Part shown: positions 14,424-64,000 of the stretch, one piece after another
Layout: each line of letters starts with the position of its first letter
Position numbering within the stretch: position 1 is the stretch's first letter
Source of the DNA: a virus
IMG/VR virus record: IMGVR_UViG_3300028920_000034
Location: 64,001-128,000 of that record
Reading direction: 5' to 3' (one strand)
Length of the DNA: 64,000 nt
Position numbers and translations under genes: made by a program
Notes under the pieces: generated by a model
Told to the model about the DNA's origin: nothing
Databases searched by the model: none
Seen by the model: only the letters and a program-made list of their open reading frames with translations

Positions 14424-16589
14424 TTAGGCGCTCTGGTTGACCTTCTGCTGGAACCGGAAGCGCACAAATTCGCCGGGCTTGTTGGGCGCGGCGTACACGT
14501 CGCACGTCACCAATCCCAGGTCGATGTTCGCCTGCGGGTTGTTGGTGCTGTCACACACCACCTTGAAGGATTCGTCCGGATCCTGACCGGCGAAATACCC
14601 CTCGTTGTGGAGGTTGAGCATGAACGAGTTGAGGCTCGCGGAGATCCGCGCCCACAGCCCCGCGTTGTTGGACTCGAAGACCGCCCAGTGGGTGGCCAGG
14701 AACGTGGACTTCTCCAGGAACATGAACAGCCGGCGGACCTGGATGTACTTCCACTCCGCGTCGATGCTCATGGTCCGGGCGCCCCACACGGCTCGGCCGG
14801 TCTGGGGGCTGTCCACCAGGGGGTTGATGTTCGCCGGGTAGATCAGATCCCGCTCACCCTTGCTCGTGTCGTACTCGAGCCCGATGGCCAGGAGGAGCTT
14901 CCCGTCGTTGATGCCCGCGGGGGCCTTCCCGACGTTCCGCTGCTGATCCGTCCGGGCGAACACGCCGGCCACGAAGCCCGAGGGGGGCATGTTCATGGGC
15001 CGGTTGTTCGCCAGGCTGTTGGCGATGGTCACCCAGGGGTAGTACAGCGCCGCGTAGGAGCTGGCGAACGCCCCGGTGAACTGCCGGTACTCGAGCACCT
15101 CCTGGGGCGTCAGATCCGACGCCGGATCCAAGAGGATGAACCGGTCCTTGCCGTCCTCCGCCCATGCGATCAGATCGTTGGCCACGATCACCGAGCCCGC
15201 GAAGTCCGGGAGGAACACCTGGAGGATCTCTTCGATCTGGTCCAGGGCATAGATCCCGCGCCGGCTGGACTGGAGCGCCGGGTCCGTCACCAGGGTGCGG
15301 GTCAGGCCGCCCGTACCGTCCGAGCCACCGGACAGGGTGCAGCACGCCTCGGTGTCATGGCTCACCTGTTTGTAGGTGGCCGTCACCACCGCCGTGCCCG
15401 TGGCATTGAAGTTGAGGGTCACGTACCCGGTGGTGTAGTTGACCGTCCCGTCGCCGCCCTGGTCACCCGTGAGGGTGCCGTTGCCGTCATCGGTGAACGT
15501 CTCGGTGCCATCGGTGATGCTCACCGAGCCCCGAAGCACCTCCGGGTGCGCCAGGTAGGTGGTGTAGGCCAGGCTGGCCCCGTCCTCGAGGAGCAACGGC
15601 TCGGCCGTCCAGGTGGCCGGCTGGAGCTCCCAGGGCACGCCCGGGGTGGTGCCGGCCGCCACACGCACCAGGTCGGACCGGTTGTTCACCTCGTCCACGA
15701 AGTAGTCCGGGTCACCCGGCGTGGTGAGGTTAAACGGCCCGAGCTGCTCCTGCACCACGTAGTCGCCAGCCCCGAGGGAGCTCTCCTCGTACACCAGCAT
15801 GTCGAACTTGGTGTAACCGCCGTTGGCGGTGTCCCGGTAGGAATCGTTGCCGATCAGGCACGCCTTCACCAGATTGCCCCAGGCGCCCTCGTTCTCGGCT
15901 TCGATGGCCCACCGGTTCACCAGGTCCGACCCGGCGGCGCTCGGGGTGCCACCGAATACGAGCTGGGTGCCGTCACCCAGGGTGGTCGGGGCTGCCACCG
16001 CCACCGAGGAGCTCGCGCCCGTGCCGCCGGTCTCGTCCGACGTGATCTTGATCCGCTGGTAGCCGTCCGTGTCGGTGACCACCGAGGCCGTGGACGTGGC
16101 GGAAATGTCCGCGTTGATCGCCGCCGCGATCTGGGTGGCCGTGTAGATCCCGGTGCCACCGCCCGCGGTCAGGTCAATGTCATCGTAGGCCGTCGCCTCG
16201 TCCGTGACCTTGATCCCGTCGTCGGTGGTGGCCGTGATGGTGATGCCAGCCGCCGGGATGCGCCAGCCCAGCACGTAGGCCGCCTGGTCCGCATCTTCGA
16301 TGGCGCAGTCCGCTTTCACCGCGTTGGCCGGCACCTCGCGCACGATGTACGCGCGGGAGCCGCCGTTGGAGAAGAACGCCGCCATGGCGTAGGGCACGTA
16401 GCTGTTGCTCCAGTAGGAGCCGAACTTGTCCACGAAGTCATCGAACCCCGTGACCAGGGTGGCCTTCCCCACCGGTCCGCGCTGGAGCCAGCCCACGGTG
16501 GCGCACGTGGACGTGCTCACGCCGCTGACCACCGCGGGGCCCGCCGCTCGCTCCTCGATGTAGACGCCTGGGCTCAGGTATTCCGCCAT
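14424..16589 (-). CDS. Contractile tail sheath protein
   Basis: MAEYLSPGVYIEE, YAALYYPWV, PPSGFVAGVFARTD, KAPAG, VWGART, YIQVRRL, WAVFESN, PGEFVRFRF. Confidence 0.96.
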   Translation of the reverse strand: MAEYLSPGVYIEERAAGPAVVSGVSTSTCATVGWLQRGPVGKATLVTGFDDFVDKFGSYWSNSYVPYAMAAFFSNGGSRAYIVREVPANAVKADCAIEDADQAAYVLGWRIPAAGITITATTDDGIKVTDEATAYDDIDLTAGGGTGIYTATQIAAAINADISATSTASVVTDTDGYQRIKITSDETGGTGASSSVAVAAPTTLGDGTQLVFGGTPSAAGSDLVNRWAIEAENEGAWGNLVKACLIGNDSYRDTANGGYTKFDMLVYEESSLGAGDYVVQEQLGPFNLTTPGDPDYFVDEVNNRSDLVRVAAGTTPGVPWELQPATWTAEPLLLEDGASLAYTTYLAHPEVLRGSVSITDGTETFTDDGNGTLTGDQGGDGTVNYTTGYVTLNFNATGTAVVTATYKQVSHDTEACCTLSGGSDGTGGLTRTLVTDPALQSSRRGIYALDQIEEILQVFLPDFAGSVIVANDLIAWAEDGKDRFILLDPASDLTPQEVLEYRQFTGAFASSYAALYYPWVTIANSLANNRPMNMPPSGFVAGVFARTDQQRNVGKAPAGINDGKLLLAIGLEYDTSKGERDLIYPANINPLVDSPQTGRAVWGARTMSIDAEWKYIQVRRLFMFLEKSTFLATHWAVFESNNAGLWARISASLNSFMLNLHNEGYFAGQDPDESFKVVCDSTNNPQANIDLGLVTCDVYAAPNKPGEFVRFRFQQKVNQSA

Positions 16590-16687
16590 GATGGTTCTCC
16601 TCCGATGTGCCACTCCATCGGAGCGGCGATCCGTTCATGAATCTTTTGAACAGCTACCGCCTGGGCAGCCGCATGTTACCGATCCTG

Positions 16688-29782: not shown

Positions 29783-31282
29783 CTACGGGGTGTTGTCCAC
29801 CTCGAGGGCGCCGTAGAAGTTGCTGTTCATCAGCTTCGTGGCGTACCGGGTCCGGAGCCCCTTGCGCGCCTGGAAGTTGCCCGGATCCAGCCAGGTGCTG
29901 GTGATCTGGAGCCCCACGTAGGGGGCGTAGGCGTAACCGCTGTCGAGGAAGGTGCTCCCCTTGAGCCCGACCACAGCCTTGCCAGACTCGAAGTACGGAT
30001 CCACGATCACGCGCCAGCGGTTCTGGAGCGTGCCGGCCTCGAAGATCCCGTAGCCCTGGGGGGCGTTCGGGAGCGGGAAGCCGGGGCGCCCGCCTGTGCC
30101 GATCCCCTGGATGGGGTCGGTCTGGGAGAACACGCCCTTGAAGTCGCCGTGGCGGCTCAGGGCCGAGATCACCGTGGACACGTCGGGCGCGCACACGATG
30201 AAGTTGCCCGGACCGCGCTTGGTGCGGGTGTGGATCTCCGTGGCGATCTTGTCCAGCTTGGTGAGGATCCCGGAGTAGTGCTCCACCGGGCTCCGGCCGG
30301 GGGGCACCGTCGCGTCGAAGGTCTCCTTGTTGGTGCCGGCGTCCGCCGCCACGTACAGGTCCTGGATGATCTCGCGGTCGATCTCCAGCCCGATCTCGCT
30401 GGCCAGGCCGCCCACCAGCTCGGACTCAATGTCCAAGCCCAGCATGGCCCGCATGTCGTCGGCCGCCTCGGAGCTCCACAGCGCCTTGAGCTTCCGGCTC
30501 CACGCCTGGACGGGCTCGAGGGAGATCTCGACGTTCACCTCGGGCACGTTGGCCGACGCCGCCTCCATGGAGAACCAGTAGTTGGCGTAGATGGGGGTGA
30601 GGTTCTTCACGTTCGCGGAGAACGTGATGTTGAAGTCGCCGCTGGCGTAGGTGACCGTGGACGCGGCGCCCGTGTCACCGGCCAGGGTGCCGGATCCGTC
30701 CGCATCGTAGATCCGGAGCACGTTGTCGGACACGTCCACCGTGGTGAACTCGAGGCCCGCGCGGCCGAAGTTGTCCTTCGGCACCACCGGGAACCAGTCC
30801 AGGGTCCCGGTGTAGTTGGCCGTGGATCCGTCTCCGGTGTCCACCAGCTCGTGGTACACGCGCTCCGAGCTGTAGAACCGGTCGAAGTTTTGGATCATGT
30901 TCTGACCCGCGGTGACCGATCCCTTGCTGGTGCCGTACTTGTACTCGAAGAAGAAGATCCCGCCGATGGGCGCGCTCATCGGCTGGACGCTCACCAGGCC
31001 GTTGGCGAACAGGCTCGCCCACACGCGGCGGACCAGCGGGAAGATGAACTTCACGTAGTCCGGCACGGCCGCCTTGGTGGTGGCCTCGCTGATGATCCCG
31101 GACTTCCGCACCTCGTCGCGGAGGTGGTTCATCTGGTTCTCGAAGAGGCGCGCCAGGTTGCGCCGATCCCAGTCCTCATCGATCCCGTCGAGGAGCCACG
31201 CCCACTTCTGCTTGAGGATCTCGTCCACCCGGTCCTGGCCTCCGAAGCCGCCCGGGGCCTTCACCATGTCTCTTGCCTGCAT
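29783..31282 (-). CDS. Major capsid protein, T4 gp23-like
   Basis: KW..LLDGI, ARLFENQ, PLVRRV...VSVQPMSAPIGGIF, SRKLKALWSSEAADD, EIGLEIDREII, GYAYAPYVGL, KGLRTRYA; probable maturation site IISE|ATT. Confidence 0.96.
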   Translation of the reverse strand: MQARDMVKAPGGFGGQDRVDEILKQKWAWLLDGIDEDWDRRNLARLFENQMNHLRDEVRKSGIISEATTKAAVPDYVKFIFPLVRRVWASLFANGLVSVQPMSAPIGGIFFFEYKYGTSKGSVTAGQNMIQNFDRFYSSERVYHELVDTGDGSTANYTGTLDWFPVVPKDNFGRAGLEFTTVDVSDNVLRIYDADGSGTLAGDTGAASTVTYASGDFNITFSANVKNLTPIYANYWFSMEAASANVPEVNVEISLEPVQAWSRKLKALWSSEAADDMRAMLGLDIESELVGGLASEIGLEIDREIIQDLYVAADAGTNKETFDATVPPGRSPVEHYSGILTKLDKIATEIHTRTKRGPGNFIVCAPDVSTVISALSRHGDFKGVFSQTDPIQGIGTGGRPGFPLPNAPQGYGIFEAGTLQNRWRVIVDPYFESGKAVVGLKGSTFLDSGYAYAPYVGLQITSTWLDPGNFQARKGLRTRYATKLMNSNFYGALEVDNTP

Positions 31283-62136: not shown

Positions 62137-62385
62137 TCAAAGGTCCTTGTGCTGATAGCATGGCTTCCCAGGGAAGCATCCAGGGCACCCCTCCTGAGCC
62201 TTCCTGGCAAGCCAGTTGTTGTGAGCCCTGATGGCCTGGCAGATGTCACAGGCGCAATGCTTGTTGGGTAGGCCGCCCTTCATCTTGGCCTCCTTGATCG
62301 CGATCAGGAGCTCGCGTTCTTCCTCGAGCTCGGCCACCATCTCTTCGGCCAGGTTGGCCTCGTCCTCGTACTTGTAGAACCCCAT
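62137..62385 (-). CDS. Small Cys-rich protein
   Basis: HCACDIC, CPGC....C..H. Confidence 0.62.
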   Translation of the reverse strand: MGFYKYEDEANLAEEMVAELEEERELLIAIKEAKMKGGLPNKHCACDICQAIRAHNNWLARKAQEGCPGCFPGKPCYQHKDL

Positions 62386-62388
62386 CGG

Positions 62389-62790
62389 TCATCCCTTCAT
62401 GTTCGGGTCTCGTCTCAGGCACTTGAGGCACTGATTCGTCATTGGATCTACCGACTTGACCGCATGACACCGGATGCAGTCCTCCCAGGCTTCTGGCTCC
62501 CCATGCTCGTAGAAGAACACGCCGTCCGCCGGGGCCGTCATCGGTTGGATGGTGAAGCACTCCCGGATGATCTTGCTGGTGGGGGACTCCCAGGTGGGGT
62601 CCGCCACGCTGTGGAGTGTCCCTTCGGCCCCACAGCTCGGACACTGCTGTCCGCCAGGCTCCCACCTGGCCACGGGTGGGTCTCCCTCCACCACGGCCGG
62701 ATTGGCCAGGAAGCACGCCCGGCACATGCCGTTCAAGGGCTTCCCTCGCATGGACTCGAGGAGCTCCTGGACTCGGTTGTCACGCTCCAT
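62389..62790 (-). CDS. Zn-finger protein carrying an MCP-like QPM motif
   Basis: Four CxxC motifs flanking FTIQPMTAPADGVFFYE. Confidence 0.7.
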   Translation of the reverse strand: MERDNRVQELLESMRGKPLNGMCRACFLANPAVVEGDPPVARWEPGGQQCPSCGAEGTLHSVADPTWESPTSKIIRECFTIQPMTAPADGVFFYEHGEPEAWEDCIRCHAVKSVDPMTNQCLKCLRRDPNMKG

Positions 62791-63223
62791 GCTTCGCCTC
62801 CTCGCTGCGCTCCACGGCCGCCCTGTAAAGCCGCTCGGCCTCCTGGAGCCGCTCCCAGGCTTCCCGCCTGGTCTCGCTCTGATGGCCGCCTGGGAGCTTC
62901 GTGTTGTCCACCAGCTTCACCCGGGCAAGCCGGGGCCGCATGTCCCCACCGCAGACCAGGCACTGGGGCCCATCCCCGCGCCGGTCGTTCAAGGGGTCCA
63001 CGGTGGACTCGCAGGAGCACCTGGGTGGCTCCCAGGCTTCGTGGCGGCACCTGATGGAGCAACAGAGCTTGCCGCTCACCACCTCCCAGCGCCGGCCGTT
63101 CATCTTGAGGCTCATAGCTTCCCTGGCCGCCGCGTAGGCCCGGCTCGGGTGCCCAGGGGTCACCACCTGGCTCCATCCCACGTCTCCGCACACGTCGCAA
63201 ACCACTACCATCTTGATCGCCAT
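62780..63223 (-). CDS. Multi-Cys hypothetical protein
   Basis: CDVC, CCSIRC, CSC, CLVC; TAATG overlap. Confidence 0.65.
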   Translation of the reverse strand: MAIKMVVVCDVCGDVGWSQVVTPGHPSRAYAAAREAMSLKMNGRRWEVVSGKLCCSIRCRHEAWEPPRCSCESTVDPLNDRRGDGPQCLVCGGDMRPRLARVKLVDNTKLPGGHQSETRREAWERLQEAERLYRAAVERSEEAKHGA

Positions 63224-63561
63224 TAAACCGGCTCCCTTCCGGCTTCGCCCGCCATCGGGTCTGGCCACTTCTGGCTGCTCACGTGTCCGCAGTCATCGCA
63301 CCTGGTGATCACCGTGCCACCCAGGTAGGCGTTCCCCTTGCGCTTGGGCATCGCCACCCCGGTGGTGGTGTTCTTGCTCCCGCACGCATCGCAGGAGACC
63401 GGCTCGCTGGCGCTGTAGGTGGGCTCCTGGGGTGGCTCCTGTTCGAACATCCGATTGCGCTCGTAGCACTCCCGGCAGACGGACAGGAGCCGCCCGGTGG
63501 TCTCGCCCTTCATCACGGGGTTGTCGCAGTCCGTGAACGCGCACTTCGGTCGGTTGCTCAT
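63223..63561 (-). CDS. Double Zn-finger protein
   Basis: C-x4-C, CREC, CDAC, CDDC. Confidence 0.65.
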   Translation of the reverse strand: MSNRPKCAFTDCDNPVMKGETTGRLLSVCRECYERNRMFEQEPPQEPTYSASEPVSCDACGSKNTTTGVAMPKRKGNAYLGGTVITRCDDCGHVSSQKWPDPMAGEAGREPV

Positions 63562-64000
63562 GGCAGCTCTCCCGGCGCCCCGCACCCGGGGCACCCGTTG
63601 ACGTTGGGCAGGTAGGCGCGCCCGCAGTAGCCGCACGCCACGGCCGCCGGCCCGCGCTCGCCGGTCTCCTTGCCCATCGGCTCCACACCCACGGCCAGCA
63701 TGTTCATGCAGTAGTCCGCCAGGAGCTGTGCCCCCGGGGCCGCGTTCTTGGCCAGCACCACGGACACCTGACCGCTCTGGTAGTCCACCGTACACCTGCC
63801 CCCGGCGTCCCCGTGGAGCTCGCCGTTGCCATCGGTGTCCTCGAGGCGCATCTTGCCGCGCTTACCCTTGATCGTGAGCACCAGCGTCTTGGGCACCACG
63901 GGCGTCCAGGTGAGCACCCCTTCCAGGTGAGCTTGCTTCTTGCCGGCTATGGCCACCGCCTCCTGGTAGACGTGCTCACTCGAGTAGTACCGGTCAAAAG
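63558..64000 (-). CDS. Partial MCP paralog fused to a Zn ribbon (5' end outside the window)
   Basis: Frame is open to the window edge: FDRYYSSEHVYQEAV...GVLTWTPVVPK...DTDGNGELHGDAG...TVDYQSG, aligning with the MCP; ends CGYC...CPGC. Confidence 0.8.
   Translation of the reverse strand, partial: FDRYYSSEHVYQEAVAIAGKKQAHLEGVLTWTPVVPKTLVLTIKGKRGKMRLEDTDGNGELHGDAGGRCTVDYQSGQVSVVLAKNAAPGAQLLADYCMNMLAVGVEPMGKETGERGPAAVACGYCGRAYLPNVNGCPGCGAPGELP

Follow-up and report, generated by a model that had tools for sequence, protein, structure and literature searches.

Why would a phage that already encodes a complete major capsid protein (MCP) carry, elsewhere in its genome, a second gene that resembles one domain of that protein? 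The question was raised by the last gene in a 64,000-nucleotide stretch of DNA from an uncultured T4-like phage (hereafter the window), which corresponds to positions 64001-128000 of the 153,114-bp virus record IMGVR_UViG_3300028920_000034 (C1); the record is rated complete, the genome has a GC content of ~64%, and nearly every gene lies on the minus strand. The gene, designated P0003, had been described in an initial annotation of the window as a truncated second copy of the capsid protein with a zinc ribbon attached. We propose, with a probability of roughly 40%, that P0003 is a soluble mimic of the MCP and that it probably serves as an anti-defence competitor for a host factor that senses the capsid.

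The MCP of this phage is of the gp23 type (499 residues; window 29783-31282, minus strand), as evident from its matches to Pfam Gp23 (PF07068; E-value 4.6e-69) and to phrog_138, 'major head protein' (1e-69), and genes for a T4-type portal protein and a prohead protease were found directly upstream of it. Comparison of the window's part of the P0003 frame with the MCP by BLASTP revealed 40 identities among 109 residues (37%; MCP residues 133-241; E-value 3e-19). The full-length protein matched MCP residues 128-241 with a Smith-Waterman score of 187, compared with a mean of 33 and a standard deviation of 4.8 for 200 shuffled sequences (z-score of 31.9); this alignment is far beyond chance, and the description of P0003 as a partial MCP copy joined to a ribbon was upheld. 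A hidden Markov model (HMM) of the MCP clade also recovered P0003, with an E-value of 3e-27 over model positions 133-235. The likeness was limited to MCP residues 128-241, and P0003 showed no match to Pfam Gp23. In the MCP gene, the source-type segment of P0003 comprises a linker and the insertion domain (I domain) and occupies window positions 30560-30901 on the minus strand.

To place this segment, we used a predicted model of the MCP (pLDDT of 80), in which two propeptide helices (residues 15-26 and 37-60) and a disordered stretch (63-75) are followed by the N-arm helix (72-89), a strand (106-116), a linker (117-140) and a separate β domain (141-237), after which the core strands begin at residue 249 and the spine helix spans residues 285-315. 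The similarity between P0003 and the MCP ended at approximately residue 241, just ahead of the core strands (249-270 in the model), which bore out the earlier observation that it stops where the MCP core resumes. P0003 thus corresponds to the distal part of the linker and the entire insertion domain, and it ends just before the core. A profile of the MCP clade aligned with T4 gp23 (6uzc) at an E-value of 3e-56 over T4 residues 5-139 and 246-479, and MCP residues 128-241 fell into the gap of this alignment, which is the slot of the T4 I domain. P0003 lacks the P and A domains, in agreement with the claim that it cannot form shells. It is also not inserted in the equivalent of the HK97-fold E-loop, being a stand-alone gene joined to unrelated genes through ATGA junctions. 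In T4, the I domain and its linkers lie on the adjacent subunit with an interface of 460-650 Å2, and this contact is remodelled upon expansion (PMC9546572). Within the MCP gene itself, we observed the sequence IISE|A at window positions 31084-31101 (MCP residues 61-66), in the disordered stretch between the propeptide helices and the N-arm helix, as a candidate site for the prohead protease. The T4 prohead protease follows the cleavage rule L/I-x-E.

The extent of P0003 was determined by reading the full frame in the whole record, where it occupies window positions 63558-64016 (C1 127558-128016) on the minus strand and encodes 152 residues. The frame beginning at 63558 read exactly as first quoted; its part inside the window covers 63558-63998, and only the window edge cuts the gene, with 16 nucleotides running beyond it. 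The frame is open for 184 codons from stop to stop, and the longest open reading frame (ORF) with a common start codon has 181 residues and begins at an upstream GTG. However, an upstream gene of 170 residues terminates within the P0003 frame, and its TGA overlaps an ATG as ATGA; this ATG is preceded by GGAG 7 nucleotides upstream and opens the sequence MNLIQSFDRYY. On these three grounds, namely the position of the upstream gene end, the GGAG and the ATGA overlap, we take this ATG to be the real start of P0003, and the starts of the orthologs described below agree with it to within four residues. At the other end, the stop codon of P0003 overlaps, again as ATGA, the ATG of a downstream Cys-rich gene of 112 residues that begins with MSNRPKC (63223-63561, minus strand). 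The GC contents at the three codon positions, calculated over the 181-residue frame, were 0.70, 0.51 and 0.85, which is typical of genes in this genome. P0003 is an intact, translationally coupled accessory gene of 152 residues. The word 'truncated' in the initial annotation therefore did not survive, since P0003 is whole and begins exactly at the linker of the MCP insertion domain as a stand-alone domain. The window edge removed only five residues, which leaves no further upstream portion of the gene to be disrupted, and the suspicion of a decaying duplicate was not borne out: the frame is intact and coupled, and the orthologs keep all four Cys residues.

An AlphaFold2 model of P0003, built from 16 aligned sequences, showed a mean pLDDT of 82. 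The copy of the first linker (residues ~1-11, containing FDRYYSSE; window 63984-64000, running on to 64016) was disordered, with a pLDDT of 44. It is followed by a β-sandwich of eight strands (residues 12-108; window 63693-63983) with block means of 82-97 and values above 90 over residues 21-100, and then by a second disordered stretch at residues 111-120 (pLDDT below 50). The C-terminal region (residues 121-150) was modelled at a pLDDT of 71-79 and contains the arrangement C128-x2-C131-x10-C142-x2-C145 (residues 128-145; window 63582-63635). By its two CxxC knuckles, which are conserved in the relatives, this C-terminus is predicted to be a C4 zinc ribbon. The best Pfam matches to it, at residues 128-148, remained below their thresholds: zf-ChsH2 matched with an E-value of 0.028 and 14.7 bits (cut-off of 23.2), and Zn_Ribbon_1 with an E-value of 0.31 and 11.4 bits (cut-off of 25).

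The fold assignment of P0003 rests on VIA-align and on BFVD, a collection of predicted viral structures, and a Foldseek search of the PDB returned no match at an E-value of 0.001 or below. The top solved match found by VIA-align was the insertion domain of the phage P1 MCP (9ukm_A, residues 196-305), with a Z-score of 9.3 and an rmsd of 2.4 between 95 residues; it was followed by a baseplate protein of a contractile injection system and by the MCP of Staphylococcus phage S6 (Z-score of 6.7). The best matches in BFVD were MCPs and one tail sheath protein.

We searched for relatives of P0003 exhaustively with phmmer among 1.84 billion representative proteins and obtained 51 hits. Two metagenomic orthologs, P0004 (145 residues, 44% identity) and P0005 (152 residues, 40%), have the same architecture as P0003, the identities ranging over ~40-47% depending on the alignment. 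The three proteins share 45 invariant columns, including C128, C131, C142, C145, G132, R133 and the string GCPGCGA. A third metagenomic protein, P0008 (407 residues), combines an N-terminal extension, an I-domain copy that is 50% identical to the MCP domain of this phage, two ribbons and a C-terminal hydrophobic helix; its ribbon matched Zn_Ribbon_1 at 2.8e-4, which is still sub-threshold. P0008 may represent an independent capture of an MCP domain into a P0003-like architecture. The P0008 gene lies one gene upstream of a gene for a PP2C-type phosphatase, and the short contig of P0005 is full of small Cys-ribbon genes, one of which shares 57% identity with an ORF of this phage. The remaining phmmer hits fell into two kinds: MCPs of the gp23 type, matched once at around residues 130-240, and proteins with tandem sandwich repeats of up to nine copies.

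Two observations bear on descent. The linker motif FD-x-[YFW]-Y-[ST]-SE was confined to the MCPs of the close clade and to P0003, P0004, P0005 and P0008, and it was absent from 40 other proteins that carry the domain, including the tail proteins of this phage. In a FastTree phylogeny of 79 domains and 108 columns, the deeper nodes of which were only moderately supported, the three small proteins formed one clade (0.90), P0008 joined them at 0.72, and the resulting group joined the clade of the phage's own MCP at 0.77. Because the motif is restricted and the tree groups them together, the P0003 family is taken to be descended from an MCP of this lineage. In the domain alignment, the identity of P0003 was 40% to its own MCP domain, compared with 34-42% to the remaining MCPs of the clade, and the split between P0003 and the MCP, as judged from such divergence, is old. 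An origin from tail-protein repeats was rejected, as those repeats lack the MCP linker motif.

This family has very few members, most of them on short contigs. Word-based searches for P0003 among proteins of near length turned up only the two orthologs; scans of IMG/VR that used either all family members or the ribbon half as queries gave no further members, and a scan of one metagenome returned MCPs and one repeat protein and no members of the small family. The ESM Atlas added nothing informative, and Pfam, PHROGs and PADLOC provided no informative family for P0003, for a second cassette gene, P0054, described below, or for the neighbouring genes.

To understand whether the gene is required, we compared the genome with that of a sister phage (IMGVR_UViG_3300029258_001212, hereafter G001; 153,540 bp with direct terminal repeats), which covers 90% of this genome at ~92% identity. 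The two MCPs are identical at 492 of 499 positions, and their I domains differ at only 2 residues. P0003 is nevertheless absent from G001, where the 170-residue gene overlaps the MSNRPKC gene directly through the same ATGA; the gene is thus a cassette of 459 nucleotides with ATGA at both ends and a clean indel of 438 bp relative to G001. No homolog of P0003 was found elsewhere in G001, and two further complete genomes, those of more distant relatives (159 and 178 kb), lacked one as well. As G001 does without the gene although its MCP is 99% identical, P0003 is dispensable and is not needed to build this capsid, and a role as an essential assembly factor was rejected on the same ground. Its absence from G001 tilts the interpretation towards an accessory or anti-defence role.

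These comparisons allowed two of the alternatives to be weighed. That P0003 is a decaying duplicate or a chance ORF without function is consistent with the paucity of orthologs and with its absence from close and more distant relatives alike, but we consider it highly improbable in view of the intact frame, the ribosome-binding site, the ATGA overlaps on both sides, the third-position GC content typical of the genome, the conservation of the 45 columns including the four Cys residues in the orthologs and the confidently predicted fold. The initial annotation had proposed three functions for P0003, namely a decoy for capsid-sensing immunity, an assembly modulator and a recombination donor for the exposed domain of the MCP. 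The last of these, in which gene conversion would diversify the domain, is even less credible. The gene does hold a homologous segment of a surface-exposed domain; however, a codon alignment showed only 52% nucleotide identity with the MCP gene (48% at third positions), the longest exact run in common was 10 nucleotides and lay out of register, and the I domain of the G001 MCP is almost unchanged in a phage that lacks the cassette. With such low identity and so short a run, this proposal had to be given up, and for present-day homologous recombination it is effectively refuted.

A tblastn search of the whole genome with the MCP revealed that P0003 is not the only such piece. P0054, which encodes 139 residues, lies outside the window at C1 136202-136621 (L010 8202-8621) on the minus strand and consists of a Cys-rich N-terminal half and a C-terminal half that is 41% identical to MCP residues 25-88 (E-value 5e-7, z-score of 19; E-value 1e-5 with the MCP-clade HMM). 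The copied region corresponds to the propeptide helices and the N-arm helix. P0054 is likewise a clean cassette bounded by ATGA, is absent from G001 and was an orphan in the word-based search among proteins of near length.

A third and borderline resemblance was found in a Cys-rich protein of 133 residues (window 62389-62790, minus strand), in which 17 residues (80-96; nucleotides 62503-62553) match MCP residues 98-114. The shared motif, QPM..P.GG.FF, gave a score of 62 against a shuffled mean of 29 (standard deviation 4, z-score of 8.2), with E-values of 0.026 by tblastn, 0.03 by the MCP-clade HMM and 0.009 against the MCP of another phage. Unlike P0003 and P0054, this protein is present in G001, at 95% identity. 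In the alignment with T4, MCP residues ~80-108 correspond to a conserved stretch around gp23 residues 93-122, which we take to be the Gol segment. A 29-residue Gol region does exist, is the most conserved part of gp23 and triggers Lit (PMC3014915).

The reading that we favour brings these observations together as follows. P0003 would present a part of the MCP that is exposed before capsid assembly, without itself assembling, and would thereby compete with newly made MCP for a binding partner. Most likely, this partner would belong to the host and recognise capsid protein in its free form, as an immune sensor of capsids does, and P0003 would occupy it without triggering it. The zinc ribbon could stabilise the small protein or block the activation step of the sensor, and P0003 would probably act together with P0054. 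Because the linker, although disordered on its own, is among the best-conserved stretches, P0003 seems to have been selected to resemble this part of the MCP to some partner. This reading is favoured by the strain-variable, accessory nature of the cassette and by the existence of a sibling cassette that copies another exposed part of the MCP. Few triggers of bacterial immunity are as well documented as capsid proteins. There is also a precedent, as immune sensors bind capsid or tail monomers and the phage protein DSAD1 inhibits DSR2 in competition with the tail tube (PMC11087589).

Several points weigh against this reading. If the copy of a trigger is faithful, the sensor could be switched on instead of being blocked. 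With 37-40% identity to its own MCP domain, P0003 is no closer to this domain than to those of other MCPs in the clade, which would make for poor mimicry if fine epitope identity matters. The joint presence and absence of P0003 and P0054 is merely suggestive, since six cassettes are specific to this phage. The sandwich also occurs on the sheath and tail proteins, so that its role may be one of general surface binding unrelated to MCP sensing. Neither PADLOC nor Pfam nor PHROGs provided a functional hint for P0003, and we know of no defence system that senses this MCP.

A more far-reaching version can be put forward only tentatively, and we regard it as doubtful: the phage may possess a modular set of capsid mimics, in which cassettes fuse MCP residues 25-88, 98-114 and 128-241 to Cys or zinc modules and jointly blind capsid-sensing immunity, the 98-114 piece then being a strand motif equivalent to Gol. 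If true, such a set would represent a new class of anti-defence genes, in which the phage mimics its own trigger.

The genomic setting also bears on function. P0003 lies within a block at C1 120-150 kb (window 56000 onward) of tightly packed, small minus-strand genes, nearly all without family matches, and genes for an amidase, a DNA methylase and a phosphoribosyltransferase lie upstream. The earlier placement of P0003 among small accessory genes was correct, and its distance from the MCP gene, first given as about 33 kb, measured ~32 kb. ORFs with a CxxC..CxxC pattern are concentrated in the block, accounting for 12 of 47 ORFs there compared with 3 of 131 elsewhere. Several of these ORFs share with P0003 the layout of a domain plus a C-terminal ribbon. 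The genome contains twelve sigma-54-type motifs (TGGCAC-N5-TTGC), four on the minus strand (C1 140117, 103636, 88415 and 1750) and eight on the plus strand. The sense-oriented motif at C1 140117 heads the block that contains P0054 and P0003, and its 16-nucleotide core is the same as that of the copy ahead of the head block (103636); a simple scan found no minus-strand terminator between the motif at C1 140117 and P0003. This arrangement weakly suggests that P0003 may be co-expressed with the head genes.

The shared motif core is one of the points that favour the strongest alternative, a possible but less probable one, in which P0003 is an optional modulator of capsid assembly, a capping factor or a decoration protein. 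The free linker and I domain would dock on the site of the MCP that receives the I domain of a neighbour, and P0003 would in this way keep monomers from engaging before assembly, adjust the formation of heads or occupy empty sites on the shell. The binding of the T4 I domain and linkers to the adjacent subunit is in keeping with this (PMC9546572), as is the nature of the three MCP-like pieces, all of which are elements that act in trans: the propeptide and N-arm helix, the first E-loop-type strand, and the linker with the I domain. DarA of phage P1 and CpmB of SaPI provide precedents, as they act beside, or compete with, the assembly elements of the capsid itself (PMC12810830). However, the sister phage builds capsids without P0003 or P0054, so that any such role is non-essential; the P0003 gene is separated from the head module by 32 kb and surrounded by ORFan cassettes; and only three or four relatives were found in the entire protein search. 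As regards decoration proteins of the Hoc, Soc and Dec types, P0003 is located outside the head module and is missing from the sister phage.

The same type of β-sandwich is not restricted to the MCP and P0003. One or two copies each were found in the tail sheath protein (phrog_23; window 14424-16613) and in three or four tail-region proteins, three of which map to L011 4533-5567, 7436-8398 and 8398-9390; all of these genes are on the minus strand, and their domains lack the MCP linker motif. The outer surface of the head, sheath and fibres seems, from these domain matches, to share one domain family. It is therefore conceivable that P0003 is an exapted binding module, a general surface sandwich with a ribbon whose task has no connection with the MCP and could consist, for example, in binding a nucleic acid or a macromolecule of the host. 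The recurrence of the domain in the sheath, in tail-region proteins and in metagenomic tandem repeats of up to nine copies is consistent with such a use, and the fold also matches baseplate and fibre domains. We nevertheless consider it unlikely, given that P0003 keeps the MCP-specific linker motif, which is disordered alone and occurs in no repeat protein, that it is much nearer to MCP domains (E-values of 1e-17 or better) than to tail repeats (~1e-3), and that a second cassette copies a different part of the MCP.

Strain variability could also point to a weapon. In that case, P0003 would be a dominant-negative capsid fragment that poisons the heads of co-infecting relatives or of satellites that hijack the MCP, while assembly of the phage's own heads tolerates it. 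The copied elements are of the trans-binding kind, the cassette is strain-variable, and P0008 appears to be membrane-anchored and stands in a non-structural context. Nothing points to resistance of the phage's own MCP, satellites or competitors are not known, and the idea is pure inference; we judge it to be very unlikely.

The cassette character of P0003 is part of a wider pattern. Relative to G001, this phage has six specific clean insertions, whose flanks abut within 25 nucleotides in the sister genome: C1 116945-117092, 126138-126379 (window 62138-62379), 127575-128012, 132159-132511, 136210-136637 and 142841-143428. The two that were examined closely are swapped exactly at ATGA stop/start overlaps. 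The insertion at C1 126138-126379 is a Cys-rich ORF of 82 residues, and G001 has insertions of its own at other sites. The ends of the record (C1 1-126 and 152881-153093) share an identical stretch of 42 codons, which fits a terminal repeat or a circularly permuted assembly.

To our knowledge, few phage counter-measures to the sensing of structural proteins have been described. Nothing that we found in the literature describes a natural gene that is conserved and strain-variable and reproduces just the exposed insertion domain with its linker from the capsid protein of the same phage, nor one accompanied by another cassette derived from the N-terminus of the capsid protein. If P0003 and P0054 are trigger mimics, they would offer a sequence-based route to anti-defence genes and to the epitopes read by immune sensors; if they bind the MCP instead, they would be natural trans-acting regulators of T4-type capsid assembly. 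Both possibilities are directly testable, since two near-identical phage genomes differ by the P0003 and P0054 cassettes.

Among known systems, the I domains of T4 gp23/gp24 and of the P1 MCP come close: P0003 is homologous to the I domain and linker of its own gp23-type MCP, in which this segment occupies the T4 slot, and the fold is nearest to that of P1; the T4 I domain itself cannot be aligned by sequence. In contrast to the T4 and P1 domains, P0003 is encoded by a separate, dispensable gene, lacks the P and A domains of the HK97 fold and carries a ribbon. The T4 vertex protein gp24 likewise arose by MCP duplication within a T4-like lineage, but it is a full-length, shell-forming paralog encoded in the head module, whereas P0003 is a single peripheral domain that cannot tile. 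The ribbon follows the C-x2-C-x10-C-x2-C pattern of Zn_Ribbon_1 (PF13240) and zf-ChsH2 (PF12172), although it scores below the gathering cut-offs of both and is appended to a capsid-derived domain. CpmB of SaPI1 competes with the scaffold of the helper phage for sites on the MCP, and P1 DarA has its N-terminus removed, beside that of the MCP, by one and the same protease (PMC12810830); these proteins act through scaffold-type helices inside the procapsid and are not copies of an I domain, so that the analogy suits P0054 better than P0003. A functional analogy is DSAD1, a small accessory protein that blocks an immune sensor, competing with the monomer of a virion protein for an overlapping site (PMC11087589). 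P0003 is likened to DSAD1 by putative function alone and, unlike it, is truly homologous to a part of the presumed trigger.

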